DNA of 63,974 nt, filler included, from an uncultured bacterium (lineage in GTDB: Bacteria > Hinthialibacterota > Hinthialibacteria > Hinthialibacterales > Hinthialibacteraceae): NCBI GenBank assembly GCA_964449065.1. It is 5 parts of 5 records of this genome, joined end to end, with 100 filler letters (N's around TTAATTAATTAA, not from the genome) between each part and the next. Parts side by side here need not be neighbours in the genome. Positions count along the whole stretch, not along the records: positions 14,502 to 28,896 come from CAYVAZ010000117.1; 4 more parts are not named here. One strand, 5' to 3'. The notes under the pieces are model-generated. The model made no database searches, was not told the origin of the DNA, and worked only from the letters and a program-made list of their open reading frames with translations. Positions 2,694 to 28,613 of the stretch are shown piece by piece (the first letter of the stretch is position 1; every line of letters begins with the position of its first letter). Made by a program: the position numbers and the translations under genes.

Positions 2694-2761
2694 TTCAGTC
2701 GATCTCAATAAAGACGTATGTTTGCTAGGCATGATTAATCTATAAGCTGTAAAGGAGTATC

Positions 2762-11700: not shown

Positions 11701-13446
11701 ATGAATACTGGAAAACATTTTCTGTGGATGTTCTTTCTAACTAGCATTCTGATCCAACTTTCGTATTCGCGGCAATCGGCTGATTTCCTTTTCCGCAACG
11801 GCAAAGTCATCACCGTTGATGAAGTCTTCAGCGTCCAACAAGCAGTGGCCATACAAGACAACCGCATTCTTGCCGTTGGATCCAATAAAGAGGTTCAATC
11901 CTACAAGAATGGCCGCACCAAGGTGATCGATTTGCAAGGCAAAACTGTCATGCCGGGTTTGATCGATTCCCACGTCCATGCGGCGGCGGCATCGGCCATT
12001 GAGTTCGATCATACCGTGCCGGAAATGGATTCCATCAGCGATGTGCGGGATTACATCCGCAGCCGCGCCCAAGCGCTGCCTGATGGCGAGTGGATTTGGA
12101 TCGCCCAAGTGTTTTTGACCCGGTTAAAAGAAGGGCGCTACCCCACCAAGGCCGAACTCGATGAAGCCGCCCCCAATCACCCCGTTGTGTTCCGTACCGG
12201 GCCGGATGCATCGGTCAATTCTCTCGCGCTTGAACGCAGCGGAATCGGCAAAGGCTGGGAAGTGGATGACGGCGGCCCCGGCTATATCGAAACCGACCCC
12301 CAAACCGGTGAACCCACCGGAATCCTGCGTGGCTGCACACGCTATCTGAACTACAAATCCCCGCTGAAAGAACCAACAAAACAAGACCGCATTGCACTGA
12401 TGAAACAATTAATGGCCGATTACAACAGCGTCGGCATCACCGGCATCGCCGAACGAAACTCCAACCAAAATCACATCGAAATGTACCGTGTCCTGCGCGA
12501 TACCGGCGATTTGACCACCCGCGTCTATCTATCACTGGGCGTAAACACCATTGCCCCGGATGAACAATTGCAAAAGCAAATCGAAAGTGTAACCGAATTG
12601 CCGGAATACAAATCCGGCGAATGGTTCAACATCCGGGCGATTAAAGTGTTTATGGACGGCGGTATGCTGACCGGCAGCGCCTATATGACCAAACCGTGGG
12701 GCGTGAGTGAGTTTTACAACATCCAAGACCCTGCATACCGCGGCATCCGCAATATCCCCGAAGACAAATGGAACGTCATCGTGGAAGCCTGCATGAAGAA
12801 CGATGTTCAACTCACCGCGCATTGTGTGGGAGACGGGGCGGTACACGCCTTCATCGACGGATGCAAGGAAGTAAAAGACCAATATCCCATCCGTGAACGC
12901 CGCCCGGTCATTTGCCATTGCAACTTTATGACGCCATCGGCTATTGAACAAATGGCCGAACTCGGCATCAACGCCGATTTGCAGCCTGCCTGGCTTTATT
13001 TGGATTCCCGCACGCTCTTACAGCAATTCGGCTATGAGCGCATGGCCTGGTTTCAGCCGCTGCGTTCGCTCTTCGAACGGGGAGTCATCGCGGGGGGCGG
13101 CTCCGATCACATGCAAAAGATCGGGGCGGACCGCTCCATTAACTTTTACAATCCCTGGAAAGGCATGTGGGTGGCCATGACCCGCAACGCCAAATGGACG
13201 GATACCATTGTGCGCGAAGAACACGCTCTTTCGCGCATAGAAGCCATCCGCTTCTATACCATCAACAACGCCTACCTGCTTTTTGCCGAAGACGAACGCG
13301 GCTCACTCGAACCGGGCAAACTCGCTGACTTTATCGTTTTGGATAAAGACATTTTAACCTGCCCGCTGGATGACATCCCAAACATGAAAGTGCTACAAAC
13401 ATACGTGGATGGGAAAATCGTTTACAATAGGGAAGGCAGGGGGTAG
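11701..13446 (+). CDS. Secreted amidohydrolase (YtcJ-like, amidohydrolase_3)
   Basis: Signal-like N-terminus; PGLIDSHVH, KVFMDG, HCVGDGA, GGSDH and GSLEPGKLADF motifs. Confidence 0.92.
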   Translation: MNTGKHFLWMFFLTSILIQLSYSRQSADFLFRNGKVITVDEVFSVQQAVAIQDNRILAVGSNKEVQSYKNGRTKVIDLQGKTVMPGLIDSHVHAAAASAIEFDHTVPEMDSISDVRDYIRSRAQALPDGEWIWIAQVFLTRLKEGRYPTKAELDEAAPNHPVVFRTGPDASVNSLALERSGIGKGWEVDDGGPGYIETDPQTGEPTGILRGCTRYLNYKSPLKEPTKQDRIALMKQLMADYNSVGITGIAERNSNQNHIEMYRVLRDTGDLTTRVYLSLGVNTIAPDEQLQKQIESVTELPEYKSGEWFNIRAIKVFMDGGMLTGSAYMTKPWGVSEFYNIQDPAYRGIRNIPEDKWNVIVEACMKNDVQLTAHCVGDGAVHAFIDGCKEVKDQYPIRERRPVICHCNFMTPSAIEQMAELGINADLQPAWLYLDSRTLLQQFGYERMAWFQPLRSLFERGVIAGGGSDHMQKIGADRSINFYNPWKGMWVAMTRNAKWTDTIVREEHALSRIEAIRFYTINNAYLLFAEDERGSLEPGKLADFIVLDKDILTCPLDDIPNMKVLQTYVDGKIVYNREGRG

Positions 13447-14401: not shown

Positions 14402-14501
14402 NNNNNNNNNNNNNNNNNNNNNNNNNNNNNNNNNNNNNNNNNNNNTTAATTAATTAANNNNNNNNNNNNNNNNNNNNNNNNNNNNNNNNNNNNNNNNNNN
14501 N
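14402..14501. other. Artificial contig linker (N44-TTAATTAATTAA-N44)
   Basis: Six-frame-stop spacer, repeated identically at 28897, 43380 and 57756. Confidence 0.99.
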
Positions 14502-14507
14502 AAACAC

Positions 14508-14556
14508 TGGCGGTCCGAGGAGGATTCGAACCCCCGACCCCTTGATTCGTAGTCAA
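14508..14556 (-). tRNA. 3' fragment of tRNA-Arg(ACG); att core of the integrative element, not a complete tRNA
   Basis: The minus strand reads TTGA-CTACGAA-TCAAG-GGGTC-GGGGG-TTCGAAT-CCTCC-TCGGACC-G-CCA (anticodon arm, T arm, acceptor 3' strand, CCA). No D arm or 5' acceptor strand lies upstream. It is ~180 nt from the integrase. Confidence 0.88.
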
Positions 14557-14660
14557 TTCCAGCGGGTTTCTCGCAACCACGCTACACCTCTCGCAATCTC
14601 TATAAACACATGGTTTTATTGACATTATAAGACCGGCGCGCTTTCATGCTCTTCTCGCGG

Positions 14661-14714
14661 GCTCACCCGATTTCGCGCTTTTCTGCTTACCCCGTGCTTA
14701 CCCACCGCTTACCC
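14661..14714 (+). repeat. GCTTACCC x3 at 11-bp period plus a GCTCACCC variant; candidate integrase arm-binding sites
   Basis: Copies at 14685, 14696 and 14707, variant at 14661; located between the att core and the integrase start. Confidence 0.65.
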
Positions 14715-14734
14715 GAACATGAAACGGCCTCACC

Positions 14735-15940
14735 ATGCCCCGCCAGAAACTCACCAAATCCGTCGTCGATCGCCTCGCGCCGGCCGAGCACGAAATCGTG
14801 GTCTGGGACAGCGCTCTTCCGGGCTTTGGTGTGCGGCTGAAACCCAACGGCGCGAAGAGCTACGTCGTCCAGTATCGCAATCGCGAGACAGGTGCCTCGC
14901 GCCGCAAGACCATCGGCCAGAGCGGGCCGCTCATGACCTTCCATCAGGCGCGCGAACAGGCACGCCTTGTCCTCGCCGCAGCGCTCACTGGCGGCGACCC
15001 GGTTGATGAGGCGAGGATGCGGCGCAAGGCGCCAACAGTGTCTGACCTCGCCGCAGACTACCTCGAGAAGCACGCCCATGCGAAGAAGCGCCCCGCCTGC
15101 GCGGCAGCCGATGAAGGCATGCTCCGGCTTCACATCCTGCCGCGCATCGGCAAGCAGAAAGTCGATGATGTGAGCCCGCGCGACATCCATGCGATCCATG
15201 TTGCCATGAAGGCCACACCGCATAATGCCAACCGCGTCCTCTCCCTGCTCTCGAAGATGTTCAATCTTGCAATCCGCTGGGGCTGGCGCGCAGACAATCC
15301 AGCTACTGGCATCACACGCTATCATGAAGAGCCGCGCGACCGCTGGCTATCGAGGGACGAGCTTGCCCGCCTGCTTGCCGCCCTCGATGAACATCCTCAT
15401 CAGCTCGCTGCAAACGCCATCCGATTCCAGCTTCTCACCGGCGCGCGCATCGGCGAGGTGCTCAAGGCCGAATGGAAGGACATCGACGTCGAGCGCGGCG
15501 TCTGGCGCAAGCCTTCCCACCACACCAAACAGAAGCGCACCGAACACCTGCCGCTCTCGCGCCCGGCCCTCACCCTTGTCTTGGCAATGCGCGAGGAGGC
15601 CGGCGCCGAGCCCTTCCTCTTTCCGGGCGATGCACCGGACAAGCCGCTTCAGAACCTCAAACGCTTCTGGAAATCGGTGACGAAACTGGCCGAGCTCAGA
15701 GATTACCGGATCCACGACAACCGCCACACCCACGCCTCGCACCTGGTCTCCAGCGGCCTCAGCCTCGAAATCGTCGGTCGCCTGCTGGGACACACCAACC
15801 CCGCCACGACACGGCGCTATGCACATCTGGCAGATGATCCTCTCAGAGCGGCTGCGGATCGATTTGGGGAGCTAGTCGCAGCAGCGCCTGACGCATCATC
15901 GTCCAACTCATCTGACGAAAAAGGGGCCACCCGTAGGTGA
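14735..15940 (+). CDS. int: Tyrosine recombinase/integrase (P4-like, arm-binding N-terminal domain)
   Basis: WDSALPGFGVRL arm domain; catalytic-type motifs TGARIGE, HHTK, HDNRHTHAS and LLGHT...TTRRYAH. Confidence 0.96.
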   Translation: MPRQKLTKSVVDRLAPAEHEIVVWDSALPGFGVRLKPNGAKSYVVQYRNRETGASRRKTIGQSGPLMTFHQAREQARLVLAAALTGGDPVDEARMRRKAPTVSDLAADYLEKHAHAKKRPACAAADEGMLRLHILPRIGKQKVDDVSPRDIHAIHVAMKATPHNANRVLSLLSKMFNLAIRWGWRADNPATGITRYHEEPRDRWLSRDELARLLAALDEHPHQLAANAIRFQLLTGARIGEVLKAEWKDIDVERGVWRKPSHHTKQKRTEHLPLSRPALTLVLAMREEAGAEPFLFPGDAPDKPLQNLKRFWKSVTKLAELRDYRIHDNRHTHASHLVSSGLSLEIVGRLLGHTNPATTRRYAHLADDPLRAAADRFGELVAAAPDASSSNSSDEKGATRR

Positions 15941-16013
15941 CCCCCGCATTTCGTGGACCTTCCAAAGGAAGTCCTTGTTAACGGAAAGTCCGACTTTTCC
16001 AGAGTGCTAGAAA
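15918..16013 (-). ncRNA. tracrRNA
   Basis: Minus-strand anti-repeat TAGCACTCTGGAAAAGTCGGACTTTCCGTTAAC (16009-15977) pairs with the minus-strand repeat. It is followed by AAGG, a hairpin (GGACTTCC...GAAGGTCC) and a terminator GGGGTCACC-TACG-GGTGGCCCC-TTTTT. The 5' end is approximate. Confidence 0.9.
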
Positions 16014-16122
16014 TGCCTAGATACGTTGTGCGCTTTCGATTGATTTGTAAATACCACTCGGCGCATCTTTGGCTTGCGCGTCCCCACAATTGTTTTCTAG
16101 CATCTCCTAAAGGGAGACGAGC

Positions 16123-19100
16123 ATGCGTTACAGGCTGGGAATTGATCTGGGCACGAATTCGATCGGTTGGGCCGCAATCCAGCTTTCTGACGAACTTCAA
16201 CCGAGGCAGTTGATGGATCTAGGCGTGCGGATTTTTTCCGACGCGCGCAATCCAAAGGACAAGGCTTCAAATGCGGCAAAGCGCCGAGAGCCAAGAGGAA
16301 TGCGCCGAAATAGGGATCGGCGAATTCAGCGCAGCGAGCGGCTCATGAATGCGCTGATCCGGGCAGGATTGATGCCGGGCGCCCAATTGGAGCGAAAGGC
16401 GCTGGAAGAGTTGGACCCATGGGTCCTGCGGGCGCAGGGGCTGGAGACCCGTTTGAGCCCCGGCGAAATCGCACGGGCGATTCTCCACCTCAGCCTGCGC
16501 AGGGGCTTCAAGTCCAATCGCAAAACGGATGGTGATGAGGATGGCGCCGTTTACGCTGCGATCGAAGCAGCGCGAATGAGAATGGCCTCAGCCAGCGCAA
16601 GGACACTTGGTGAACTCTACGGACGCCCCAGAATTGAGGCACGCGAGCAGAATAAGAATGCCTCGAAGGGCAAGGGAAAGCCCATGCCGCAGGCGCGGGT
16701 GAAACCTCGCAGCGAAGGCAGCAAGCTCTCCTATGACTACTACCCCGAAAGGGCGATGATCCTTGATGAGTTCGATCAGATCTGGGCGGCGCAGGCACCG
16801 TTCCACGCGGAGATCATGACCGAGGAATCGCGTCAACAAATCAGGGGCATAATTGAACACCAGCGGCCCCTGAAACCCCAACGTGCAGGAAAATGCTCTT
16901 TCCTGCCTCACCTGCCCCGCGCACCAAAAGCCTTGCCAAGCGCTCAATATGCCCGTGTCCTTCAGGAGGTGAACAATCTCAGGGTGGGCGCAGTAGGCGA
17001 AAATGATCGCGTACTCACGCCAGACGAACGGGGTCGCCTCATTCAGTTTTTGATGTTGCCAAGTTCGAAGACGGCGCGACGCACATTCAAGGCAATACGG
17101 AGGCTCATTAACCTTCCTGACTCGCAAGTCTTCAATCTTGAAAGTCGCAAGCGGGACCATCTCGTAGGTGACGAAACAGCCGGCCGCCTTTCACAGCAAG
17201 ATGCCTGGGGACCGGACTGGCTTTCCATCGAACGATCGCTTCAGGACGAAATCGTCCTGAAACTTCTTGATACCGAGCAGCGCAAAGACATTGTTCGATG
17301 GCTTAGCGAACGACATGGCTTGGACAAGTCCCGTACTGAAGCTGTCGCAAACGTTCGGCTGAGCGACAGACACAGCCGACTTTCGGCTGAAGCCCTGGCA
17401 CAGATCATTCCACGCATGGAAAACGGCATGCGCTACGATGAGGCGGCAACCGACGCATTCAGAGACCATCGCGCGCTGGGCGATGGCGAAATTCATGACG
17501 AAGCTTTGCCTTATTATGGCGAGGTGCTGTCGCGCCATACAGCCTTTGAGAAAGACCCGCCCGAAACCGGCGAAGACACCCGCAACGCTGAAGAAAGGTA
17601 TGGCCGCGTCGCCAACCCGACGGTGCATGTTGCTCTGAACGAGCTGCGAAAGGTCATCAATGACCTGATCCGGCGATGGGGTCCGCCCAGCGAAGTGGTG
17701 CTGGAACTTGCCCGTGACTTGCCGCTGTCCAGTAAGGGCTTGAGCGAATTAGAAAAAACACAAAAAGAAAATCAGACGAAAAACGAGGCCCGCCACAGAG
17801 AGCTGGAAACCCTAAAAGTCTCCGACACCTATGAAAACCGTCTGAAACTGAGGCTCTACGAAGAGGCATTGGAATGTTTCGGTGGGACGGCACAATGCGT
17901 GTTCTCGGGCACGCCAATCTCACTCACCTCGCTTTTCACCGCCTATATCGAGATAGAGCACATCCTGCCGCTTTCACGGACTTGGGACGACAGCTTTGCC
18001 AACAAGGTGCTCTCGACCCGCGCAGCGAACGGCCTCAAGAAGAACAACACACCCTTTGAAGCTTTCGGAAAAGAACAAGATCCATTCGACTGGGAAGAAA
18101 TCAGTCAGCGCGCAAAGGACCTGCCGAGAAACAAGTCTTGGCGCTTTGCGCCTGACGCCATGGAGAAATGGGAAGAGCGCGGCGGTGACTTCCTGGCCCG
18201 CCAGCTCAACGACACGCGGTATATTTCGCGGCTGGGGAAAACCTTTGTCGAAGCCCTGTTTGGCGGCGAGGGCAGCAAGGGCCAGGATCGCCGGGTCTGG
18301 GTTGTGCCGGGCCGCCTCACCGCCGATCTCCGTCACTATGCGGGTTTCAATTCGCTGAGTGGTTTCACCGATACCAATCAGAAAGACCGCACGGACCATC
18401 GTCACCATGCTGTCGATGCGCTTGTTGTCGCTCTGACGGATCAATCCATGCTGAAGCGTGCCGCTGATCTCGCCAAGCGTGAGGACAGGGTGGCACACTA
18501 TGAAATCATGCAGGCCATGGCTGAGCCGCTCAAACGCTATCGCCGTTCAGCCGAGGATCGTTTGGCAAAACTGATCGTTTCACACAAGCCAGACCACGGC
18601 TTTCAATCGGGCATGCATAATGACACCGCCTACGGAGTAACCGGCCAGACAGACGAAAAGCGCCAGCCAATCCTTGTCACACGCAAACCACTTGAATCGC
18701 TGAAGCCGGAAAACTTGGTGAACATAGTCGATCCTGAGCTACGGCGACAGTTCGCATACGCCACTGCAGGGCTGAGCGACAATGCCTTTAAGGAAGCGTT
18801 GAGCCGCGCGGGCAGGTCGATGACCCCGCCGGTTTATAAGGTGCGGCTGACGACGCCCATGAAGCCGACGAGTTTCGTCACAATTCGCCATGGCCCGGAC
18901 GGGCGACATGCCAAGGCTTACAAGACAGACGGCAATTATTGCTATGACATCTTTATGGGCAAGAAAGGGAATTGGGATGGCGAGGTCATCACCACCTACG
19001 AGGCATACCAGCGTGCGCAGCAAGACCCCGACTGGTGGCGAAAGTTGGAAAGGTCAGACGGTGCCCCGCTAATCATGCGCATCCGCAAGGGCGATATGCT

Positions 19101-19317
19101 TGGAGTTGATGATGATGAAAAGCGGACGGTCGTCGTTGTCTACAAGTTCTCCAAAGGCAAGGTGAATATGGCGGACCACCATGAAGCGAATGCATCGGCT
19201 CGCATTCGGGCCGGAGAGCTTCAGGGATACCAGATGTCGCCGTCATCTTTGCAAAACGCAAATGCTGTTCGTCTCAGCGTAAGCCCTACCGGAACGGTCA
19301 GACGTCACAAGGTATGA
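16123..19317 (+). CDS. cas9: Type II-C CRISPR endonuclease Cas9 (1064 aa)
   Basis: RuvC-I LGIDLGTNSIGWA, Arg-rich bridge helix, RRGFKSNRK, RuvC-II VVLELARD, HNH IEHILPLSRTWDDSFANKV, RQLNDTRY, RuvC-III HHAVDA; no csn2 or cas4 in the locus. Confidence 0.98.
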   Translation: MRYRLGIDLGTNSIGWAAIQLSDELQPRQLMDLGVRIFSDARNPKDKASNAAKRREPRGMRRNRDRRIQRSERLMNALIRAGLMPGAQLERKALEELDPWVLRAQGLETRLSPGEIARAILHLSLRRGFKSNRKTDGDEDGAVYAAIEAARMRMASASARTLGELYGRPRIEAREQNKNASKGKGKPMPQARVKPRSEGSKLSYDYYPERAMILDEFDQIWAAQAPFHAEIMTEESRQQIRGIIEHQRPLKPQRAGKCSFLPHLPRAPKALPSAQYARVLQEVNNLRVGAVGENDRVLTPDERGRLIQFLMLPSSKTARRTFKAIRRLINLPDSQVFNLESRKRDHLVGDETAGRLSQQDAWGPDWLSIERSLQDEIVLKLLDTEQRKDIVRWLSERHGLDKSRTEAVANVRLSDRHSRLSAEALAQIIPRMENGMRYDEAATDAFRDHRALGDGEIHDEALPYYGEVLSRHTAFEKDPPETGEDTRNAEERYGRVANPTVHVALNELRKVINDLIRRWGPPSEVVLELARDLPLSSKGLSELEKTQKENQTKNEARHRELETLKVSDTYENRLKLRLYEEALECFGGTAQCVFSGTPISLTSLFTAYIEIEHILPLSRTWDDSFANKVLSTRAANGLKKNNTPFEAFGKEQDPFDWEEISQRAKDLPRNKSWRFAPDAMEKWEERGGDFLARQLNDTRYISRLGKTFVEALFGGEGSKGQDRRVWVVPGRLTADLRHYAGFNSLSGFTDTNQKDRTDHRHHAVDALVVALTDQSMLKRAADLAKREDRVAHYEIMQAMAEPLKRYRRSAEDRLAKLIVSHKPDHGFQSGMHNDTAYGVTGQTDEKRQPILVTRKPLESLKPENLVNIVDPELRRQFAYATAGLSDNAFKEALSRAGRSMTPPVYKVRLTTPMKPTSFVTIRHGPDGRHAKAYKTDGNYCYDIFMGKKGNWDGEVITTYEAYQRAQQDPDWWRKLERSDGAPLIMRIRKGDMLGVDDDEKRTVVVVYKFSKGKVNMADHHEANASARIRAGELQGYQMSPSSLQNANAVRLSVSPTGTVRRHKV

Positions 19318-19351
19318 GTTTTGCAGCTTCACCGTTTCGTAAGGTGGGGAC

Positions 19352-20281
19352 ATGCAGAATCGGATCGTTGAAATCGCCAGTGACGACGTGCACCTCTCAC
19401 TTTCGCGGGGATTCTTGAAACTGTCGCGTCAAGGGGTCGAGCTCGGCCGCGTTCCGATCCCGGATATTGCTGCGGTCCTTGTACGCGGTTATGGCGCGTC
19501 CGTTTCTTTGAACATGGCCGCGCGCCTCGCTAGCGAGAACATCCCGGTCATTCTGTGCGGCGCAAACCAGCTGCCCGCGTCAATCGTCTGGCCGCTGGAC
19601 GGTCATCATGCGCAGGGCCGCATCATGCAGGCGCAAAGTGTCCTCAGCCGCCCAAAACAGAAACGGCTTTGGCAGTCACTTGTCCAAGCAAAGATCAAGG
19701 CGCAGGCATGGGTGCTTGAGGCGGAAGACCGATCCGCCAAAGACCTGCGCCTGATGGCGCGGCAGGTCCGATCGGGTGACCCAGACAATATCGAAGCACG
19801 AGCAGCACGCGCCTACTGGAACCGTTTGATGGCACCGCTCGATGATGAATTCAGGCGTGACAGCGCGGCGGGCGGACTGAACGCCTGGCTGAACTACGGC
19901 TATGCAGTGCTTCGCGCCGGCACAGCGCGCGCCATCGTTTCTGCGGGCTTGCATCCGAGCCTATCGCTTCACCATGAGAGCCGCGGGGAAGCCTTGCGCC
20001 TGTCCTCCGACGTCATGGAGCCCTTCAGGCCATATGTGGATCTTGCTGTTGTCCGGCAGGCCAGCAACACGTCCGAGGCGCCGGGCGAACTCGACCCGGC
20101 ATCGAAAGCGGCCATTATCTCTGTCCTGAATCTCGACCTGCAAACGGTGCATGGCGTCAGTCCGGTGCAGACTTGCCTGAACCGGCTATGTCAGAGCCTC
20201 GCTGGCATATGCCTTGGAGAAGCCCGTCAACTCGACCTGCCGAGCGGCCTGGTCTTTGCAACAAAGGAGGCCGTCGAGTGA
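19352..20281 (+). CDS. cas1: Type II CRISPR-associated Cas1
   Basis: SGDPDNIEARAARAYW, NAWLNYGYAVLRA, GLHPSL and DVMEPFRPYVD motifs. Confidence 0.97.
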   Translation: MQNRIVEIASDDVHLSLSRGFLKLSRQGVELGRVPIPDIAAVLVRGYGASVSLNMAARLASENIPVILCGANQLPASIVWPLDGHHAQGRIMQAQSVLSRPKQKRLWQSLVQAKIKAQAWVLEAEDRSAKDLRLMARQVRSGDPDNIEARAARAYWNRLMAPLDDEFRRDSAAGGLNAWLNYGYAVLRAGTARAIVSAGLHPSLSLHHESRGEALRLSSDVMEPFRPYVDLAVVRQASNTSEAPGELDPASKAAIISVLNLDLQTVHGVSPVQTCLNRLCQSLAGICLGEARQLDLPSGLVFATKEAVE

Positions 20282-20619
20282 GAACGCTATCTCACCTGTC
20301 AGCCTATCAGCACATGTGGATTATGGTCCTCTTTGATCTGCCAACCACGACAAAAGAAGAGCGGGCAGCCTACACGCATTTCCGCGACTTCCTGCTCGAT
20401 CATAGCTTTGTCATGTCGCAATTTTCTGTCTATCTGCGACATGTGTCTGGCCGTGCGGAAGCTGCCCCCCTGATCGAACGTGTCAGTAAGGCTGTGCCAC
20501 CGGAAGGACGCGTCGATATTCTGCAATTCACCGACCGGCAGTATCGCGATATCGTCAGTTTACGCGGTCGTCGGCGACGCGATTCGCGGGAAAATCCCGC
20601 TCAACTGGTCTTGTTTTAG
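20278..20619 (+). CDS. cas2: CRISPR-associated Cas2
   Basis: GTG start overlapping the cas1 stop, with an AAGGAGG RBS; MWIMVLFDLP, FRDFLLDHSFVMSQFSVY, TDRQY, and a QLVLF end. Confidence 0.96.
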   Translation: MRTLSHLSAYQHMWIMVLFDLPTTTKEERAAYTHFRDFLLDHSFVMSQFSVYLRHVSGRAEAAPLIERVSKAVPPEGRVDILQFTDRQYRDIVSLRGRRRRDSRENPAQLVLF

Positions 20620-20622
20620 AAG

Positions 20623-20685
20623 GAGGCAGGCGATTTTCAGACGGACAGAAATCCGATTTCTTCTGTCTTTTCAATCGCCTGCCTC
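20623..20685. terminator. Long hairpin between cas2 and the array (candidate terminator or structured leader)
   Basis: Perfect 13-bp inverted repeat GAGGCAGGCGATT/AATCGCCTGCCTC enclosing GACAGAA/TTCTGTC. Confidence 0.6.
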
Positions 20686-20692
20686 TGTTCCG

Positions 20693-23266
20693 GTTATAGC
20701 ACTCTGGAAAAGCCGGACCAACCGCAACGGGGTCGTGATGATGGCGCGGGGCCTGTCGTTATAGCACTCTGGAAAAGCCGGACCAACCGCAACCAAGATC
20801 TGGGAGCCGGCTTGCGGGCCGGGGTTATAGCACTCTGGAAAAGCCGGACCAACCGCAACGGGCCTGGTCTTTGGTCTCCGGCCTGCTCGGTTATAGCACT
20901 CTGGAAAAGCCGGACCAACCGCAACCCGGCCGCCTCGCGAGCCTCGAACAGCTGCGTTATAGCACTCTGGAAAAGCCGGACCAACCGCAACTGTGTTTGG
21001 CAACCGTCCCCATGATGCCGAGTTATAGCACTCTGGAAAAGCCGGACCAACCGCAACGACAATCTCCCTGACAGCCCGGCTCATCGGGTTATAGCACTCT
21101 GGAAAAGCCGGACCAACCGCAACACGCAATCCGGCGCGGGCCCAGACAGAAAGTTATAGCACTCTGGAAAAGCCGGACCAACCGCAACTCCGAAAGCAGC
21201 GCCGGCCAATATAGCGGCGTTATAGCACTCTGGAAAAGCCGGACCAACCGCAACTGCCACTGGCCGGCTCATACACCGCGCTCTGTTATAGCACTCTGGA
21301 AAAGCCGGACCAACCGCAACGCCCGCCTGCGCAATCCACATCACGTCGCCGTTATAGCACTCTGGAAAAGCCGGACCAACCGCAACTGTGGCTGCCAGCG
21401 ATATAGCAGTATGGGCGTTATAGCACTCTGGAAAAGCCGGACCAACCGCAACTGAGTCCGACGTTTGGTAGCGGACAGGCTGTTATAGCACTCTGGAAAA
21501 GCCGGACCAACCGCAACTTGTGCCATGCCATCACATGCCCGTCAATGTTATAGCACTCTGGAAAAGCCGGACCAACCGCAACTGGGAGCAACTGGGGTCG
21601 TCGGCAGCCAATGTTATAGCACTCTGGAAAAGCCGGACCAACCGCAACTCCAGCCCAGGTAGGATTGTACGCGCTGTCGTTATAGCACTCTGGAAAAGCC
21701 GGACCAACCGCAACTCCAGCCCAGGCGCGATTGTACGCGCTGTTGTTATAGCACTCTGGAAAAGCCGGACCAACCGCAACCGAATGGCGACTAGATAGCC
21801 CTGCGGAATTGTTATAGCACTCTGGAAAAGCCGGACCAACCGCAACGCGGCAGAGATTGAGGGAGTGGCGGTGTGAGTTATAGCACTCTGGAAAAGCCGG
21901 ACCAACCGCAACAACTGCATTTGCCGAAGCCGCGTTGCACTAGTTATAGCACTCTGGAAAAGCCGGACCAACCGCAACTTGTGCCATGCCATCACATGCC
22001 CGTCAACGTTATAGCACTCTGGAAAAGCCGGACCAACCGCAACACTGAATAAGAGGAAAAGAAATGACCCTGTGTTATAGCACTCTGGAAAAGCCGGACC
22101 AACCGCAACCTTGAACGGGCCTTCCTCGAACCTGTAGACGTTATAGCACTCTGGAAAAGCCGGACCAACCGCAACCAACTGGAAGCGTTGGGCATCCAGC
22201 CGGCGTTATAGCACTCTGGAAAAGCCGGACCAACCGCAACTTGTGCCATGCCATCACATGCCCGTCAACGTTATAGCACTCTGGAAAAGCCGGACCAACC
22301 GCAACGGAAACTCGCGCAGCTCACCGATGCGCGCAGTTATAGCACTCTGGAAAAGCCGGACCAACCGCAACTGAGTGGTCGCAGCTCCGCCCAATACAAG
22401 GTTATAGCACTCTGGAAAAGCCGGACCAACCGCAACCGCCCGGACGCAACACCCGATCATCGCCTCGTTATAGCACTCTGGAAAAGCCGGACCAACCGCA
22501 ACTGGGGGTTACATGAATGCACAAGGGCTGTTGTTATAGCACTCTGGAAAAGCCGGACCAACCGCAACCGCCCGCCTTGACACCCGCCAGCGAATAGCGT
22601 TATAGCACTCTGGAAAAGCCGGACCAACCGCAACGGCATCACCATTGACGTTACGGGCCGGCGCGTTATAGCACTCTGGAAAAGCCGGACCAACCGCAAC
22701 GGAAACTCGCGCAGCTCANNNNNNNNNNNNNNNNNNNNNNNNNNNNNNNNNNNNNNNNNNNNNNNNNNNNNNNNNNNNNNNNNNNNNNNNNNNNNNNNNN
22801 NNNNNNNNNNNNNNNNNNCAGCTCCGCCCAATACAAGGTTATAGCACTCTGGAAAAGCCGGACCAACCGCAACGAACGCCCGCCGTATATTTTGCCCAGG
22901 CCGTTATAGCACTCTGGAAAAGCCGGACCAACCGCAACTCACACACCGAATGCCCTCCCAATGCCTGCGTTATAGCACTCTGGAAAAGCCGGACCAACCG
23001 CAACTCAATCGATCCCGAAGCCTTTGATACAGCGTTATAGCACTCTGGAAAAGCCGGACCAACCGCAACGCGAGGGTGTCAGGGCCCAGCCCGTCATCAG
23101 TTATAGCACTCTGGAAAAGCCGGACCAACCGCAACCCGTCAGGCCGCTGAACGATGTGCCCAGATGTTATAGCACTCTGGAAAAGCCGGACCAACCGCAA
23201 CGCAGACGTCCGACGATGCGCTGACCGGAGGTTATAGCACTCTGGAAGAGCCGGACCAACCGTCCC
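20693..23266 (-). CRISPR. Type II-C CRISPR array: 36-bp repeat GTTGCGGTTGGTCCGGCTTTTCCAGAGTGCTATAAC (minus strand), 38 visible repeats, 29-30 nt spacers
   Basis: Counted 31 repeats before and 7 after a 100-N gap (22719-22818). The terminal repeat at 23231-23266, distal to cas2, is degenerate. Orientation is inferred from tracrRNA pairing and the TGCTATAAC extended -10-like box. Confidence 0.99.
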
Positions 23267-23268
23267 CC

Positions 23269-23517
23269 TCAAACCTCCTCCCTCAACACCCGCATCGCCT
23301 TGAGCAGCGCGGCGATCTCCCGCCGGCGCTCCATCGCCTCGCTTGAATACATTCCATGCTTCAGCGCGCGCCTATTCCCGGCCGGCGCCCCTGGGGACTT
23401 TCCGCCGTGCATCCGGCAGCGTCCATTGGCCATCGCCGGGGATCGGCAGGCCGTCCCGGCCCGCGTCTGCGCCCCGCAACGGGGGCTCAGATGCATCGCC
23501 AGCCTGTTGCCTTGCAT
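23269..23517 (-). CDS. HGGxSTG-domain protein (terminase small subunit-like)
   Basis: RCGAQTRAGTACRSPAMANGRCRMHGGKSPGAPAGNRRALKHG; 82 aa from ATG 23517. Confidence 0.82.
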   Translation of the reverse strand: MQGNRLAMHLSPRCGAQTRAGTACRSPAMANGRCRMHGGKSPGAPAGNRRALKHGMYSSEAMERRREIAALLKAMRVLREEV

Positions 23518-24061
23518 GGGGTTGTTCCTCCATTTTCGTCTCTGCCCCTCCCCCCTGCCGGCCCGATCCGGCCTCGACAGACCCGACAACCGCCTGCCCG
23601 CCGGAATGCACATGCACATGCTCGACGGTGACCTTCTGCTGGCCCTTGCCGCGATGGCGGTTCAGCGCCTCCAGCAGGGTCACCCAGGTCCGCGACAGCT
23701 TGTTCGCCTGGGAAAGATTTTCCTTGCGCCCCTCGAATGTCTGGTCGCCGATCATGCCTCTGCGATAGCACTCCATGGCCGCGCTGTGGGCCGCAATCAT
23801 TTGCGTCGCCATCATCGCTTCAAGCGGATCACGAGGTGAGATATCCATAAGGCCACAAAGAGCCGCGGTCATCAGCTCGGTCTTCTTGTCGTCCTCGGCA
23901 TGCTTGAGCCAGAGCGCCTGAGCCACCTGGTCGGTGATCATCTTGTTCCAGTTATCGGATTGAGATCCGCCGAACGCCTTCAACTTGCCCTTCCGGTCGG
24001 CCGGGTTATCGGGCCTCACCTCAACGGTCTCCTTGCCCTGTCCGGATTTACGCTTGCTCAT
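23372..24061 (-). CDS. Conserved hypothetical protein of alphaproteobacterial integrative/satellite elements
   Basis: PRDPLEAMMATQM and LEALNRHRGKGQQKVTVEHVHVHSGGQAVVG motifs; GGGAG RBS; overlaps the HGGxSTG ORF. Confidence 0.8.
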   Translation of the reverse strand: MSKRKSGQGKETVEVRPDNPADRKGKLKAFGGSQSDNWNKMITDQVAQALWLKHAEDDKKTELMTAALCGLMDISPRDPLEAMMATQMIAAHSAAMECYRRGMIGDQTFEGRKENLSQANKLSRTWVTLLEALNRHRGKGQQKVTVEHVHVHSGGQAVVGSVEAGSGRQGGGAETKMEEQPHARQQAGDASEPPLRGADAGRDGLPIPGDGQWTLPDARRKVPRGAGRE

Positions 24062-24088
24062 TGCACTTGCTCCCTTACCGTCACCCGC

Positions 24089-25963
24089 TCAGTGCGCACC
24101 CGGACCATCCTGCCAGGCGCCATTCATGTTCCCGTGGCCCTCAGCGTGGGGAAAATTTGCGTCCGCATCGTCCGCTGCGTCCGCGTCTGGCGTCCCTGAA
24201 GGCCCCGCAGCATTCCCGCGTGCGGACGATGCGGACGCAGCGGACGCAAAATCGCCATCCTCGGCCCCGTGATGGAAACCCGCCCCGCGCGCAATCGAGA
24301 TGACCCGCCGCCGCTTCCGGCCTTCCTTGAAGCGGGCGACAGGAATCCCGATCGCCGCCAGAGCCGGCTCGATGCGGGCGAGGCGCTGGGACAGGGCGCG
24401 TGGACTGGCCGGCAGACGCTCCTCGCCGGACAGGCGGCCCGCCGCCCGGTCTCGCAGGATTCGCAACAGGTCCTTCGCCGTGCCCTGCCAGGCCTCAAGA
24501 TCCGCCATGAGTTCGGCGATCGCGCTGCCAAGGCCATCGGCCTCGACCATGTCCTCGCTCGCCTCGTGCCGGTTGGCCTCATAGGCTGCGAGAAACCTGC
24601 CAGCCTCGGCAAAGGTCGCCTCGCGCGCCAGCGAGGCCAGCGCAAAATCGGCCATGCGCGGCAAGCGGTCGATCTGCACCTCACCCGCCTGCTTCAGGCC
24701 CAGCACAAGCCCGTCCAGCAGCGCACCGAACAGGGCCGGGCGGTCCGCCTCGAAGGCAGCCGAGAGCTCGGCCTCCGTCCGCCGCCTTTCATCAGGAATG
24801 GTCTCCAGTCGCAGGAAGAGCGACCGGTCGGCAAGGTCTGCGCGCGTCACCATCGTTTCGATCCCGTTGAGAATGACCGGCCGCATGGCCTCGATCACTG
24901 TCTCGTCCTTGTCGGTATAGAGCTTGCGCTTGGCATGCCCGCCCCCGGTGGACACTCGGCAGAGCGAGTCTGACAGCCAGTTGGGCAGGGTCGAAACATT
25001 GTCGAAAGACAGCAGCCAGCCATTGGCGGCAGAAACATAAAGATCGCCTTCCTCGCGCGGCAGCGGCCTGAGCATGGACCTGTTCGGATCGATCAGGCTG
25101 CGCACAAGCCTGCAGAAGCTGGACTTTGCCGAGCCCTGTCCGCCATGCACGACCAGGACAGGATAAGGACCTGTTCCGGTCAGGGCAGCGAGCATCCAGG
25201 CGCAGAGCAGGATGAAGCCCGCCTCATCGGCGATGTTGAGATGGCTCTTCAACATGGCAAGCGAGCCGCCGGGCTCCGGGCGCGGCAGGGCCAGCATGCC
25301 GGATGCGCGCCGGAACCGCACGGGCGAACGCGCGACCACCCGCCAGCCCCACGCGTCGACCTCGGCCGCTTCCCAGGCGTCATTGCAAAGGTCCACATAA
25401 AGCCGGCCTTCATGGACGGCGCAGCGAAGATAAGTCGCCTCTTCTTCACCCTCATGGATTGCGCGCGCCTCGATCAGGTTGACCGCCGCCCTCAGCGCCT
25501 CCGAATTTGGCGCTCCGCCCGTCTCCTCAAAATACCGCGCGCGCAGCCAGCGCGCAAAGCCTTCGCTCATCACAGCCCAGGTCTCGCAATGGCCACCCTT
25601 CTCGATCTCTGCAAAGGCCTCACAATCACGGGTGTGGAAAAGCCGTGCCTCATTGGCAAAACCCGCAAGAACGTCGGCCTGTCCAGGTGCCTCGTCCGGC
25701 GAGCCCGCAAGGGTACGCAGCGCCCGGTCAAGCTCACCCATCAGGCAACCGGTGGACTTCAACCGGTTGCGAAGCCGCTGGAAGGCGGGCAGGTCGTCGG
25801 CCTTGAGCCGGGCCAGCGCCTCCAGAACCTCAGCCTCGAAGGGCGCGCCGACATCCTCGTGCGTCCGCTCGACCAAACCGTCCAGCGGATCGGCAATGGC
25901 CTCAGCGGCTTCGATCGCATCGAGGATCGGGTTCGGTGCCTCGCTGGCGGTCTCCTCGCTCAT
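24089..25963 (-). CDS. P-loop ATPase/helicase of the replication module
   Basis: Walker A GGQGSAKS, Walker B-like LLSFDNVS, RKLYTDKDE and DLADRS motifs; ATGA coupling to the primase gene. Confidence 0.85.
   Translation of the reverse strand: MSEETASEAPNPILDAIEAAEAIADPLDGLVERTHEDVGAPFEAEVLEALARLKADDLPAFQRLRNRLKSTGCLMGELDRALRTLAGSPDEAPGQADVLAGFANEARLFHTRDCEAFAEIEKGGHCETWAVMSEGFARWLRARYFEETGGAPNSEALRAAVNLIEARAIHEGEEEATYLRCAVHEGRLYVDLCNDAWEAAEVDAWGWRVVARSPVRFRRASGMLALPRPEPGGSLAMLKSHLNIADEAGFILLCAWMLAALTGTGPYPVLVVHGGQGSAKSSFCRLVRSLIDPNRSMLRPLPREEGDLYVSAANGWLLSFDNVSTLPNWLSDSLCRVSTGGGHAKRKLYTDKDETVIEAMRPVILNGIETMVTRADLADRSLFLRLETIPDERRRTEAELSAAFEADRPALFGALLDGLVLGLKQAGEVQIDRLPRMADFALASLAREATFAEAGRFLAAYEANRHEASEDMVEADGLGSAIAELMADLEAWQGTAKDLLRILRDRAAGRLSGEERLPASPRALSQRLARIEPALAAIGIPVARFKEGRKRRRVISIARGAGFHHGAEDGDFASAASASSARGNAAGPSGTPDADAADDADANFPHAEGHGNMNGAWQDGPGAH
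24156..24250. repeat. Inverted iteron cluster (CGTCCGC x3 facing GCGGACG x3); candidate replication origin
   Basis: Left copies at 24160/24169/24178 and right copies at 24222/24231/24240, each set with a 9-bp period, inside the low-complexity 3' end of the helicase gene. Confidence 0.7.
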
Positions 25964-26856
25964 ATCGCACTGGCCTCATCGCAAGGCGCGCGGCCCAGCA
26001 ACATGTCGTTGAAATCCAGACCCTCAGGTGGCCGGGCGATCCGCACGGTCCGCCCCTGCCGCATCCAGCGCAAGGCGCAGTCGCGGGCCGCCGCCTCTCC
26101 GGCATCATCGCCATCGGCCAGAACGATCACGTCCCGGACCGCCTCGGGAAGTTCGAGCGAGCGCATCCCGGACGTCGAGAGCGCTGCCCAGGCAGGAAGA
26201 CCGCTCACCTGCATGGCTGAGAGGCACGTCTCGATCCCCTCGCCAACCATCAGCACCTCACTCGGCTCTGCAAGGCGCACCGCCCCGCCACGGCAGGGCC
26301 CGAGCATCATCTTTGCTGGCTTGACTGGCGCCTTGCCGGCTTCGTCGCGGGCAAGGAAGGTCCGGTGGATCGCCAGCGGCGCGCCGTTCTGCCCGTGTGT
26401 CACAAGCGCCACCATGCCCGGCCAGGTCCCGCCCGTCTTGTGTTTCAGGCCTGCATGAAAACGCAGCACCGGCTGGCGCGGCAGCGACAGGCCGCGCGCG
26501 GCGAGATAAGTCTCGACAGGCGTGCCGCCGGGCGGCCGACCAGCCTCCCAGACCGAGAGGGCATAAGCGCTGCGCTCGTCATCCTTCCGATCCGTCGGCT
26601 CAGGCTTTGCAGAACCACGGCGAACGCCGGGCCGGCGCGCCCCGCCAGCATCAGCCCATAAGCCCCGCGACCGCAGCGCGGCGATTACAGCCCGCTGCTC
26701 GCAACCGGCGTGGCAATGCACGAGGACGCGCGCGCCCCTGTCCGTGATCGAAAGGCTCGGGCGCCTGTCCTCATGCGCCGGGCAGCAGGCCACCCAGCCC
26801 GCCCCGCTGCGCTGCCCGCCAAGGGCGCGCGCGATCCACTCAGCGGGCGCAGTCAT
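25960..26856 (-). CDS. Zn-finger plus Toprim DNA primase
   Basis: CCPAHEDRRPSLSI, YLAARGL, IHRTFL, VGEGIETCLS, LADGDDAG and DFND motifs; likely start ATG 26856. Confidence 0.9.
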   Translation of the reverse strand: MTAPAEWIARALGGQRSGAGWVACCPAHEDRRPSLSITDRGARVLVHCHAGCEQRAVIAALRSRGLWADAGGARRPGVRRGSAKPEPTDRKDDERSAYALSVWEAGRPPGGTPVETYLAARGLSLPRQPVLRFHAGLKHKTGGTWPGMVALVTHGQNGAPLAIHRTFLARDEAGKAPVKPAKMMLGPCRGGAVRLAEPSEVLMVGEGIETCLSAMQVSGLPAWAALSTSGMRSLELPEAVRDVIVLADGDDAGEAAARDCALRWMRQGRTVRIARPPEGLDFNDMLLGRAPCDEASAI

Positions 26857-27055
26857 CTGCGGCTCCCATCGGCAGCGGCCCGTTCGTGTTCTGGTGCAGG
26901 CGCTCGGCCTCGAACGCCTCCACATCGGCAAGGCGATACACCACCCGCCCGCCAAGCTTCAGGTATTTCGGCCCGCGCCCTTGCCAGCGCCACTGCTCCA
27001 GCGTGCGCTCGGAAATGCCCCAGCGCGCGGCCAGCGTCTTCTGTCTCAGATTCAT
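26840..27055 (-). CDS. Excisionase/AlpA-like HTH DNA-binding protein
   Basis: LAARWGISERTLEQWRWQGRGPKYLKLGGRVVYRLADVEAFE. Confidence 0.9.
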   Translation of the reverse strand: MNLRQKTLAARWGISERTLEQWRWQGRGPKYLKLGGRVVYRLADVEAFEAERLHQNTNGPLPMGAADDCAR

Positions 27056-27421
27056 GTCTCTCGCGTCCTGCGTGACACGCCCTGCCCACATGCATTGCGC
27101 TTGATCACGACGGACATCTTCGCGGTTCTGTCCGCGCAAGTCTGTGTTCAGTCACGAAGAAAGCTGTGACGTTGGGACTGGTAAATCATCAATGAATTCA
27201 GCGGCCGAATGCGCGGTCCGTGACAGGCCCGCCAAGTCTTGTGACATCTTGTCGGGCGCGCGAGGCAGAAGACGGCGGAAATGGGAGCAGTGCAAGCTGA
27301 TGGAAGATGTTCGGCTCGCGGGATGATCCCGCTGTCAGCAATGGGCGCAAAAGGAGCCATAAGGAATCCGGCCTGGCAGGAGCATTGAGGCGTGATCGAA
27401 TGGCAACTGAAGGCGGAATTC

Positions 27422-27895
27422 ATGCCATTCGGTGCAGCGAGCGGGACGTGGATCTCTTGGAACAGGGGCAAGCGGGTTGGCCAGAAATCGCCGTTGAAGC
27501 CGCAAGAGGTTTGGGCGATCCGGGTCCGTCTTGAGACCGCTGAAAAACGCCGCGACCTGACGCTGTTCAATCTGGCGATCGACAGCAAGCTGAGAGGCTG
27601 CGATCTCGTTTCACTTCGGGTCGCCGACGTGCGAACAGGCGGAGACATCCGCAGCTGCTCGAAAGTGCTCCAGAGCAAGACGGGCAGCGCCGTTCAGTTC
27701 GAAATCACCAGGCAGACGCGCGAAGCCATCGCCGCCTGGTGCGCGGCGAAAGATCTGCGGCCCCACGACTGGCTGTTCCCGAGCCGGAAGGACCTGAACC
27801 GACATCTGTCAACGCGCCAATATGCCTGTCTTGTCGAGGATTGGATCGCGTCGATCGGGCTGGCGCCAACACCCCAACGCGGGTTCGAGCTGTGA
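27422..27895 (+). pseudogene. C-terminally truncated small tyrosine recombinase
   Basis: WNRGKRVGQKSPLKP...FNLAIDSKLRGCDLV...QSKTG are present, but the ORF ends after IGLAP and lacks the HxxR, H and catalytic Tyr motifs. Confidence 0.8.
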
Positions 27896-28031: not shown

Positions 28032-28613
28032 TCACTGGCCGGAGCGCTGGCCGAGGGCCGTTGCGGTGCTCAGCCAGGCGGCGCGAGCCTTGTGCGTTGA
28101 TGATCGCACGGGGCCGAAGTGCGTGACCCGTACCGGCTTTATGCCGCAGAAATCGAGCGTCCGCTTGTTCATTATGCGATCACCGGCGCCACCAAACATC
28201 CATTTGTAAATGAACGGGGGGGTGTCCATCGTGACGATCAATTCGCCCGTTCGCCCCGTCAAAAGGCGATCCCAGCCGTTTCCCTTGGCGTGGTACCTGA
28301 ACGCGACCCCCGGCAGCAGGACCCGCTCAAGCGCGGACTTGAACGGCCCCGGCGCACCGCCCCACCAATTGGGATAGACCAGCGCCACGTGATCCGCCCA
28401 CAGGATCGAGCCCTGGAGATGGTGCAGATCAGGTTCGAGCGGCTTGTCGGCTCCATAGGGGGGCGTCACGGGATCGAAGCTCAACTCATCCAATCGAATG
28501 CTGCGAATCTCACAATTTGCGCCCGTGGCACCGGTCGCGTATGCGCTCGCCAATCCTTCGCACAGCGATCCCGACCGGGGATGCCCGAGCAGGATAAGAA
28601 CTTTTCTCGACAT
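28032..28613 (-). CDS. NAD(P)H-dependent quinone oxidoreductase (flavodoxin-2 fold)
   Basis: LILLGHP...SLC, WADH...YPNWWGG and TMDTP motifs. Confidence 0.92.
   Translation of the reverse strand: MSRKVLILLGHPRSGSLCEGLASAYATGATGANCEIRSIRLDELSFDPVTPPYGADKPLEPDLHHLQGSILWADHVALVYPNWWGGAPGPFKSALERVLLPGVAFRYHAKGNGWDRLLTGRTGELIVTMDTPPFIYKWMFGGAGDRIMNKRTLDFCGIKPVRVTHFGPVRSSTHKARAAWLSTATALGQRSGQ

Follow-up and report, generated by a model that had tools for sequence, protein, structure and literature searches.

How does a complete Cas9 immune system come to lie between the integrase gene and the replication genes of a small integrative element? The question is raised by one contig (C117) of a metagenome bin, which forms part of a window of 63,974 bases, the window being the whole stretch of DNA that we analysed. 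Separate contigs are chained in it by N/TTAATTAATTAA/N linkers at 14402-14501, 28897-28996, 43380-43479 and 57756-57855. Because these linkers join separate contigs, genes left of 14402 or right of 28996 are not neighbours of the element, whose own contig covers 14503-28896 (14,395 bp, 60.5% GC). We read this contig as the integrase-proximal part of a tRNA-Arg genomic island, built on a self-replicating integrative element whose cargo slot holds a complete type II-C CRISPR-Cas system, and we put the probability of this reading at roughly 0.6. The element belongs to a very large, mostly alphaproteobacterial family. Its core comprises an AlpA-like helix-turn-helix (HTH) protein, a Toprim primase and a D5-like helicase, together with a conserved hypothetical protein and with an HGGxSTG protein that resembles the N-terminus of small terminases (TerS). 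The core lies 7.3 kb from the integrase gene, and the space between them is taken by the CRISPR-Cas system, where relatives carry other immune systems.

The Cas9 system and the genes on either side

The block between the two flanks is predicted to be a complete type II-C system, comprising a Cas9 with RuvC and HNH domains, Cas1, Cas2, a putative trans-activating CRISPR RNA (tracrRNA) and a repeat array. The original prediction had named these parts from the bare sequence, and all were recovered in place. Cas9 (1064 amino acids; 16123-19317, plus strand) matches TIGR01865 over the full model (E 1.7e-182) as well as HNH_4, RuvC_III and Cas9_a, and its best homologs are 66-75% identical. It is followed on the same strand by a Cas1 of the type II (NMENI) class (19352-20281; TIGR03639, E 1.2e-63; PADLOC Cas1_II, E 6.3e-92) and by Cas2 (20314-20619; TIGR01573; PADLOC Cas2_II, E 1.4e-38). 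No further cas family, csn2 and cas4 included, was found on the contig, and ~70 nt separate cas2 from the first repeat. The array (20693-23266, minus strand) consists of 38 repeats of 36 nt with spacers of 29-30 nt, its terminal repeat (23231-23266) being degenerate with 4 mismatches; 36 spacers are readable, 35 of them distinct. The candidate tracrRNA (15918-16012, minus strand) has a 25-nt anti-repeat at 15988-16012 that is 92% complementary to every repeat, a terminator hairpin at 15923-15944 and a U-run ending at 15918. Its fold scores -51.8 kcal/mol (z -5.84), and the region 14503-16200 gave no match to a tracrRNA family in Rfam. Judging from the tracrRNA strand, the CRISPR RNAs (crRNAs) would be read from the minus strand.

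Type II-C loci of Neisseria consist of cas9, cas1 and cas2 without a fourth cas gene, encode a Cas9 of ~1,060 amino acids, and have 36-nt repeats with the crRNA strand opposite the cas genes. The system described here resembles them in gene set, Cas9 size, repeat length and crRNA strand. In N. meningitidis an extended -10 box is embedded in the repeat, and the repeat of the window ends in TGCTATAAC, which resembles this box and represents a putative promoter. The system in the window differs from the Neisseria loci in the position of the tracrRNA, which lies upstream of cas9 and shares its terminator with the integrase gene.

The junctions of the block are tight. On the left, the integrase stop codon (15938-15940) is contained in the terminator hairpin of the tracrRNA, and on the right, the stop codon of the HGGxSTG gene (23269-23271) lies 2 nt past the last repeat, so that the cassette fills the gap exactly, as had been claimed. 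The impression that the cas genes are less GC-rich than their surroundings was likewise borne out, with 57.2% for the cas block, 66.8% for the backbone and 63.4% for the integrase gene. The lower GC content of the block suggests foreign cargo.

The left flank is a complete gene for a tyrosine integrase of 401 amino acids (14735-15940, plus strand) with arm-binding, SAM-like and catalytic domains (PF00589, PF13356, PF22022; phrog_1, E 3.9e-76), in whose translation the R, HxxR and Y motifs can be read. The right flank is the core on the minus strand, where the HGGxSTG, hypothetical, helicase-like ATPase, primase and HTH genes are all present as originally described. Outermost is a protein of 71 amino acids of the AlpA or excisionase type (26840-27055; PF12728 HTH_17, E 1.3e-8; phrog_66 "excisionase and transcriptional regulator", E 1.2e-8). 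The adjoining gene (25960-26955) is clearly a DNA primase, with a CHC2 zinc finger, DUF7146 (PF23639, E 2.6e-32) and a Toprim domain (PF13362, E 4.2e-21; phrog_510, E 1.9e-41). Next comes a P-loop ATPase of 624 amino acids (24089-25963), which gave no sequence match in Pfam, NCBIfam, PHROG, PADLOC or the PDB and is 32% identical to the "DNA helicase/primase" of Microbacterium phage Zeta1847. An AlphaFold model of it, built from 20 sequences, was mediocre (pLDDT 60) and poor in the P-loop part. The best Foldseek matches of this model were the African swine fever virus PrimPol, poxvirus D5/E5 and phage NrS-1, all D5-type superfamily 3 helicases, with probabilities of 0.9-1.0 and TM values of 0.2-0.37. 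The ATPase is likely a D5-like (superfamily 3) replicative helicase.

Closest to the array lie the conserved hypothetical gene (229 amino acids; 23372-24061) and the gene for the HGGxSTG zinc-ribbon protein (~80 amino acids; 23269-23520). The hypothetical protein had no match in Pfam, NCBIfam, PHROG or PADLOC and fell only into unnamed clusters of the Atlas; copies 53-61% identical to it occur in ~20 relatives. The HGGxSTG protein matches NF041373 (E 4.9e-11, 42.2 bits at a cut-off of 29) and the terS family phrog_1889 (E 3.8e-7). The two genes overlap in different frames by ~145 nt (23372-23520, the last ~50 codons of the hypothetical gene), and this overlap is kept in ~20 relatives, for example at 12991-13133 of locus L007. 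In two further loci, L041 and L080, the two genes lie apart and in opposite order.

A variable defence slot in a large element family

Among 8000 scored candidates, 5229 are homologs of the ATPase at E<=0.001. The best of these are ~50% identical, and those that are named come from Reyranella, Acidiphilium, Aurantimonas, Nitratireductor, Salipiger and Nitrosomonas. In a scan with one genome per species, 568 of 601 candidate stretches encoded a relative, and the best 80 were kept (L001-L080). These are mostly from Alphaproteobacteria, together with bins labelled Binatia, Bryobacterales, Myxococcota, Phycisphaerales, Latescibacterota and Terriglobia; in the bin's own family a more distant member is found in 4 of 18 genomes. 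Of the 80 loci, 61 gave a tblastn match (E<=1e-5) to the primase of the window, 22 to its HGGxSTG protein and 21 to its hypothetical protein. A common layout of the family is tRNA, int, HTH, primase and ATPase on one strand (e.g. L002, L041, L052, L079 and L080, the last at a transfer-messenger RNA gene). In relatives, either the integrase gene adjoins the HTH-primase module on the same strand or the element ends in a large serine recombinase. The "two convergent backbone halves" of the original prediction are thus real in the window, where the integrase gene faces the core, but they are not the usual arrangement of the family. XRE, M78-peptidase and DUF5659 genes lie upstream of the core in most of six annotated relatives. 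Neither the element family nor the HGGxSTG marker has a name or a mention, respectively, in the literature that was searched.

We then compared what follows the HGGxSTG gene in homologous elements, a comparison that had been proposed from the start. An HGGxSTG match at E<=0.01 was present in 23 loci, and the 17 with at least 3 kb of downstream sequence were examined; L008 and L014 (little downstream DNA), L051 (a 2.5-kb contig), L054 (fragments) and L041 and L080 (other gene order) were left out of the count. Directly after the HGGxSTG gene, 15 of the 17 relatives carry defence genes. Type I restriction-modification (R-M) systems account for twelve of them (L004, L007, L013, L015, L017, L018, L019, L031, L032, L038, L053 and, in pieces, L047), an Hma system is found in L048, an HKD+Snf2 candidate called by PADLOC in L058, and a type I-C CRISPR-Cas system in L079; L009 and L046 have nothing recognisable there. 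PIN, Fic, PLD-nuclease, HepT, FRG and DUF3800 genes accompany these systems. In L018, L031 and L047 the cargo ends at a large serine recombinase, behind which housekeeping genes follow in L018 and L031, both of which were extended, and in L019 and L032 transporter-type genes come after the R-M system, with no recombinase seen within the locus. An integrase of the type found in the window was not present nearby in L015, L017, L018, L031 or L053, and exact 13-mers revealed no attachment (att) repeats of at least 19 nt around 22 relatives. From this gene content we regard the position after the HGGxSTG gene as the family's variable defence-cargo slot.

CRISPR-Cas lies downstream of the core in 2 of the 80 relatives. 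One is the type I-C system of L079, on the chromosome of a Latescibacterota bin, where the locus was extended by 40 kb. Its left part consists of a tRNA-Thr 3' fragment, int, primase, ATPase, hypothetical and HGGxSTG genes and four small open reading frames (ORFs), with identities to the proteins of the window of 32% (integrase), 45% (ATPase), 56% (hypothetical) and 69% (HGGxSTG). Then follow cas3c, cas8c, cas7, cas4, a split cas1, cas2 and 77 repeats, and past these ParA, IS66 pieces, a KAP NTPase, Vsr with a C5 methylase, a UvrD-nuclease and an intact tRNA-Thr. The two ends of this 47-kb island, at 6563-6613 and 53675-53725, are marked by a perfect direct repeat of 51 bp at tRNA-Thr. Its tRNA fragment adjoins int with the 5' side inward, which is the same topology as in the window.

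The other is L068, from a Rhodospirillaceae bin, which carries a Cas9 system. Its genes run from int, HTH_17 and ATPase (44% identical) through a tandem repeat, small ORFs and an IS3 copy to a 31-repeat array, cas2, cas1, a cas9 whose product is 26% identical to that of the window, a second IS3 copy and housekeeping genes. This is the order of the window with the part after int inverted. The tandem repeat (38 nt x 7.4, at 12663-12941), which directly follows the ATPase gene, resembles iterons and could serve as an origin of replication; no equivalent was seen in the window. The Cas9 locus of L068 is flanked by the two IS3-family copies (L068 16800-19471, L191 7713-9064), as in a composite-transposon-like entry of CRISPR-Cas.

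Island ends, assembly and competing explanations

Contigs (not reads) of four public microbial-mat runs, X1-X4, were aligned to the stretch. Run X1 contains an exact contig of 2,139 nt over 14892-17030 (int, tracrRNA and cas9) and an exact one of 440 nt over 23166-23605, which leads from the last repeats into the HGGxSTG gene; a contig of X2 bridges 15745-16422. The depth is ~5-7 on both halves of the element in X1 and X2. Because exact public contigs bridge them at equal depth, both outer junctions of the cas block are real, and the check for a misassembly at 15940 or 23267 revealed no break. In run X4, which comes from another study, pieces of int, cas9 and the core were present with ~90-96% identity and at a comparable depth. 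None of the four runs covered the array interior, and linkage of the two halves through it is likely. A candidate variant lacking the cas genes was seen in X3 (another study), where int and core were covered, cas9-cas2 were not, and the sequence left of 23289 was different; at a depth of ~3 and from contigs only it was too weak and was set aside.

The array itself contains a 100-N scaffold gap at 22719-22818. The partial spacers flanking this gap are the same as two consecutive spacers at 22306-22400 in the left half of the array. One spacer occurs in three copies (21518-21546, 22044-22073 and 22241-22269), one copy with a different last base, and the neighbouring spacers at 21715-21744 and 21781-21810 are variants of a single protospacer. 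These copies suggest repeated acquisition from one target or duplication within the array. Duplicated spacers are probably the cause of the gap: going by the gap-side pair and the repeated spacer, the assembler seems to have failed to separate variants of the array or a duplication in it.

The bin (515 contigs, 5.22 Mb, 47.5% GC; 86.7% complete, 2.8% contaminated) has only 17 contigs above 56% GC, and the contig under study is one of them. Its host may be another organism than that of the bin. The 36 readable spacers have a mean GC content of 0.62, which would suit targets that invade a host of high GC content better than targets that invade the bin's organism at 47.5% GC. An alphaproteobacterial origin, as originally proposed, is no more than plausible. 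The contig stands out by its GC content in a bin that belongs to a different lineage.

The left end of the island is marked by the 3' part of a tRNA-Arg(ACG) gene, from the anticodon stem to the acceptor end (14508-14556, minus strand), which aligns at 38 of 46 positions with positions 30-75 of tRNA-Arg(ACG). It sits at the contig end and is a displaced att-type fragment with its 5' side facing the island. ARAGORN called no whole tRNA in the window, Rfam found none in 14503-16200, and there is no D-arm-like sequence upstream of the fragment; public mat contigs matching 14508-14556 continue past 14556 as D-arm or whole tRNA at much higher depth. From the orientation of the fragment, the DNA to its right would lie inside the island. 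A BLAST search with the fragment against the whole bin returned only the fragment itself, the bin's own tRNA-Arg(ACG) on contig C198 has a different sequence, and none of 5 alphaproteobacterial genomes contained the 49-nt pattern when <=3 mismatches were allowed.

To the right of the core lies a second tyrosine recombinase gene (27392-27895, plus strand), which is truncated and lacks the C-terminal catalytic part (PF00589 profile positions 6-124 of 172). Most of it belongs to a ~540-bp segment at 27320-27860 with loose ends at 27319 and 27861, where the depth is 41-115 compared with ~5. In all four mat metagenomes this segment is 8-25x deeper than its surroundings and occurs in numerous sequence variants, with flanks that differ, so that it represents a mobile gene fragment present in several copies or several hosts. 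A 53-nt match to the segment forms the end of the bin's contig C382. A gene for a flavodoxin-like NAD(P)H oxidoreductase (28032-28613, minus strand; PF02525) and the first part of a gene of the TetR family (from 28659, plus strand; TetR-type NCBIfam matches), cut at the contig end at 28896, complete the contig and may lie within the island or beyond it. Scans with Pfam, NCBIfam and PHROGs of this contig, which is cut at both ends, found no capsid, tail, relaxase or secretion family, in agreement with the earlier statement that none was visible. Pfam and NCBIfam likewise gave no coupling-protein family on it. On the neighbouring contig C116, unrelated to the element, a HEPN-domain gene and an overlapping ORF of 129 amino acids with no family match (window 9633-10417) may form a toxin-antitoxin pair of the HEPN/MNT type.

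Several observations weigh against the reading of the contig as an island with Cas9 cargo. The two halves are linked only through an array with a scaffold gap, and the assembly join through the multi-copy 540-bp segment could be wrong. A repeat search of the contig gave no second att copy, and no intact matching tRNA-Arg was found on the contig (ARAGORN) or in the bin; since both are missing, the limits of the element are undefined and it is possibly decayed or immobile. No circular or excised form was seen in the contigs, as distinct from reads, of the public runs, where the only joint, present in one X1 contig, leaves out 201 nt (27600 to 27802) of the multi-copy recombinase segment. The integrase gene is convergent with the core and lies on the cargo side, 11 kb from the HTH gene, whereas its closest homologs are directly followed by an HTH gene. 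For an inversion scenario we found neither inverted repeats at the putative breakpoints nor homology of 27056-27319 to the int-HTH spacers of relatives. The XRE, M78-peptidase and DUF5659 genes that precede the core in close relatives are missing from the window, which has the truncated recombinase fragment in their place, and the helicase assignment leans on a weak model. Cas genes like those of the window were present in none of the 80 genome loci (tblastn E<=1e-5) and none of 57 viral loci, within the fetched flanks. The same holds in reverse for 22 other alphaproteobacterial Cas9 loci, 20 of them the best matches among 401 sampled genomes of the class, in whose fetched flanks no element genes were found; their Cas9 proteins are 33-64% identical to that of the window. 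Finally, the 36 spacers had no match of at least 20 nt in the fetched loci and the bin. Protospacers were also not found in a phage collection, a plasmid collection gave two chance-level matches only (E 0.6), and two spacer patterns had 0 matches in IMG/VR.

L085, an 8.7-kb metagenome contig, holds the only close Cas9 relative with context (64% identical). Just upstream of its Cas9 gene, at 1203-4695, we observed a Replic_Relax gene and a weak coupling-protein-like match, which places the Cas9 lineage of the window beside a second kind of mobile element as well.

Part of this evidence would also fit a different history, in which the CRISPR-Cas9 locus is the host's own, or part of an older island, and has come to be sandwiched by what is left of two unrelated elements, int and the tRNA-Arg fragment on the left and, on the right, a decayed primase-helicase element without its own recombinase or regulators. 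An integrase that is convergent with and far from the core, unlike in relatives, a core that lacks XRE-M78-DUF5659 and abuts a recombinase fragment, a cas GC content that differs from both flanks and the absence of a right-hand att would all be expected from such a history, and type II-C loci are common in the class, with Cas9 in 47 of the 401 sampled genomes. Against this stand the 2-nt gap and the overlapping terminator, which leave no housekeeping gene or spare DNA between the parts, and the polarity of the tRNA fragment, which puts everything rightward of it in the island. Moreover, defence cargo occupies the same slot in 15 of 17 relatives, CRISPR-Cas among it in L079, and L068 has the same gene set and order apart from the inversion. 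We consider the sandwich history unlikely.

That the contig shows one section of a prophage, a capsid-forming satellite or a conjugative element of larger size, with structural or transfer genes beyond the contig ends, is quite improbable. The cut at both ends would allow for it; in the distant relative L154 the ATPase gene is followed by genes for portal, capsid and terminase, ATPase relatives occur in IMG/VR contigs of 40-65 kb, and the L079 island measures 47 kb. However, in none of the 17 relatives examined was a capsid, tail, relaxase or type IV secretion (T4SS) family seen after the core, and housekeeping genes follow within ~5-12 kb; in the window itself, the left end is set by the tRNA fragment and only a recombinase fragment, an oxidoreductase and a TetR gene lie to the right. 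An assembly artefact, in which two genomes or strains sharing a CRISPR repeat were joined via the array and its gap, or via the 540-bp segment, appears very improbable. The gap and the uncovered array interior, the many flanks of the high-depth repeat at 27320-27860 and the outlying GC content of the contig within a metagenome bin are what would be expected of it. Exact contigs nevertheless bridge int, tracrRNA and cas9 as well as the last repeats and the HGGxSTG gene, both halves have a depth of ~5-7 in two runs, the partial spacers at the gap are two consecutive spacers of the left half, and run X4 of another study yields pieces of int, cas9 and the core that are ~90-96% identical and of comparable depth.

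The interpretation as an integrative island with CRISPR-Cas9 as its cargo, which was the central proposal of the original prediction, is thus supported by sequence comparison, and not by a second att site: a large element family, a defence slot filled in 15 of 17 relatives, CRISPR-Cas in two relatives and the orientation of the tRNA fragment all argue for it. In such an island, the integrase would act with the HTH_17 protein in excision and integration of the element, whose circle would be replicated by the primase and helicase. The cas system would protect both host and island and would travel with the island, its spacer memory included. The weakest step, which we propose only tentatively, is that the HGGxSTG protein might redirect the terminase of a helper phage, leading to satellite-type transfer.

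The satellite question and known mobile elements

The HGGxSTG protein has weak matches to terS models (NF041373, phrog_1889). Its phage homologs are the first ~70 residues of proteins of 185-197 amino acids that are encoded immediately upstream of the large terminase gene terL; identity to these N-termini is 48% in Pasteurella phage Pm86 and 35% in the Ralstonia phages Hyacinthe, Raharianne and Albius. The island protein therefore looks like a small-terminase N-terminal domain on its own, presumably the part that recognises DNA. The already mentioned L154, an IMG/VR contig of 15,558 bp and 64% GC with an ATPase 36% identical to that of the window, has the layout int, primase, ATPase, portal, protease/capsid, adaptor, HNH, terS, terL, which resembles a capsid-forming phage-inducible chromosomal island (cfPICI). 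HGGxSTG and hypothetical genes were found in none of the 57 IMG/VR relatives.

The layout of phage-inducible chromosomal islands (PICIs) is int-alpA-pri-rep plus a small-terminase-like gene. An integrase, an AlpA-type regulator and a pri-rep module are present on the contig, the helicase fold assignment being weak. The element shares with PICIs and cfPICIs, as these are described in the main-text passages of PMC10085698, these genes together with the small-terminase-like gene, a size of ~13 kb and defence cargo. It differs from them in that the canonical co-directional int-alpA-pri-rep order between attL and attR is absent, with a single att-type fragment, and in that only a TerS N-domain of ~80 amino acids is encoded. 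Portal, capsid, adaptor, HNH and terL genes of its own are absent here and in close relatives and are present only in the distant L154. No helper phage, packaging or second att site was found for the element. Of the proposed satellite-like element, the cargo part thus stood up better than the satellite part, which finds its support in the orphan gene for a TerS-N-domain-like protein and in L154 only, and satellite identity is no more than a reasonable hypothesis. If the family were a phage-satellite lineage, the slot after the TerS-like gene would be an exchange point for whole immune systems, the slots of the window, L068 and L079 would carry complete adaptive CRISPR-Cas systems, and helper particles would move Cas9, acquisition genes and spacer memory as a ~13-kb unit. 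We find this extended proposal doubtful, though conceivable.

By description, the element also resembles the tycheposons. According to the main text of the preprint by Hackl et al. (10.1101/2020.12.28.424599), these combine a recombinase of the tyrosine or large serine type with partial tRNAs at the flanks, a regulator of the excisionase type, primase/helicase genes and a cargo module; PICI-like and cargo forms share integration and replication genes, and degenerate integrase fragments occur in the islands. The likeness covers the type of recombinase, the partial tRNA, the excisionase-type regulator, the primase/helicase, the separate cargo, the existence of PICI-like forms as well as cargo-carrying ones and the integrase fragments in islands. 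A replication module and a distinct, variable cargo are present in the family, the window has one tRNA-Arg fragment next to int, with no partner end on the contig, and L079 shows the tRNA flanks in full. The differences lie in the hallmarks of our family (DUF7146-Toprim primase, unnamed D5-like ATPase, HGGxSTG protein), in its hosts, which are high-GC Alphaproteobacteria and other soil or mat lineages, and in its cargo, which is defence, compared with nutrient uptake in the tycheposons as the preprint's main text describes them. That main text has 0 mentions of CRISPR or restriction.

Restriction-modification and abortive-infection cargo is described for satellites (PMC10085698) and for the marine VEIMEs (PMC9618062). 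In the main-text passages of both papers, whose supplements may list cargo, CRISPR appears only as background or in the reference list. CRISPR-Cas on larger integrated elements is already in print: CampyICE1 is reported in PMC8743540 as an integrative and conjugative element (ICE) of 70-129 kb with a Cas9-only type II-C system lacking cas1 and cas2, and passages of PMC12629846 place a type I-C system in PAPI-1 and a type I-F system in PAGI-1 at hotspots. The earlier remark that a satellite-like element with Cas9 immunity is not known as a described system has to be read against these cases. All three elements resemble ours in having CRISPR-Cas as hotspot cargo of an integrated mobile element, CampyICE1 also in type II-C. 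They differ in being large conjugative or PAPI-type islands, compared with a small primase-helicase element with no conjugation genes on its truncated contig. CampyICE1, as described, further differs by its lack of cas1 and cas2, whereas the system here is predicted to be complete, acquisition genes and an array of 38 repeats included. Carriage of CRISPR-Cas by islands and ICEs is known; the case described here, a complete Cas9 system on a small, non-conjugative primase-helicase island, is an uncommon variant of it.

The comparison has revealed a very large element family (>5,000 ATPase homologs; Alphaproteobacteria, Binatia, Latescibacterota and others) with a fixed slot for defence cargo, and it established a positional link of the HGGxSTG domain to phage small terminases. 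If the island interpretation is true, a complete adaptive immune system and its spacer record can move as one small integrative unit without conjugation genes, which would go some way towards explaining why type II-C systems are distributed so patchily among Alphaproteobacteria. Whole adaptive immune systems may move between bacteria on such small islands.

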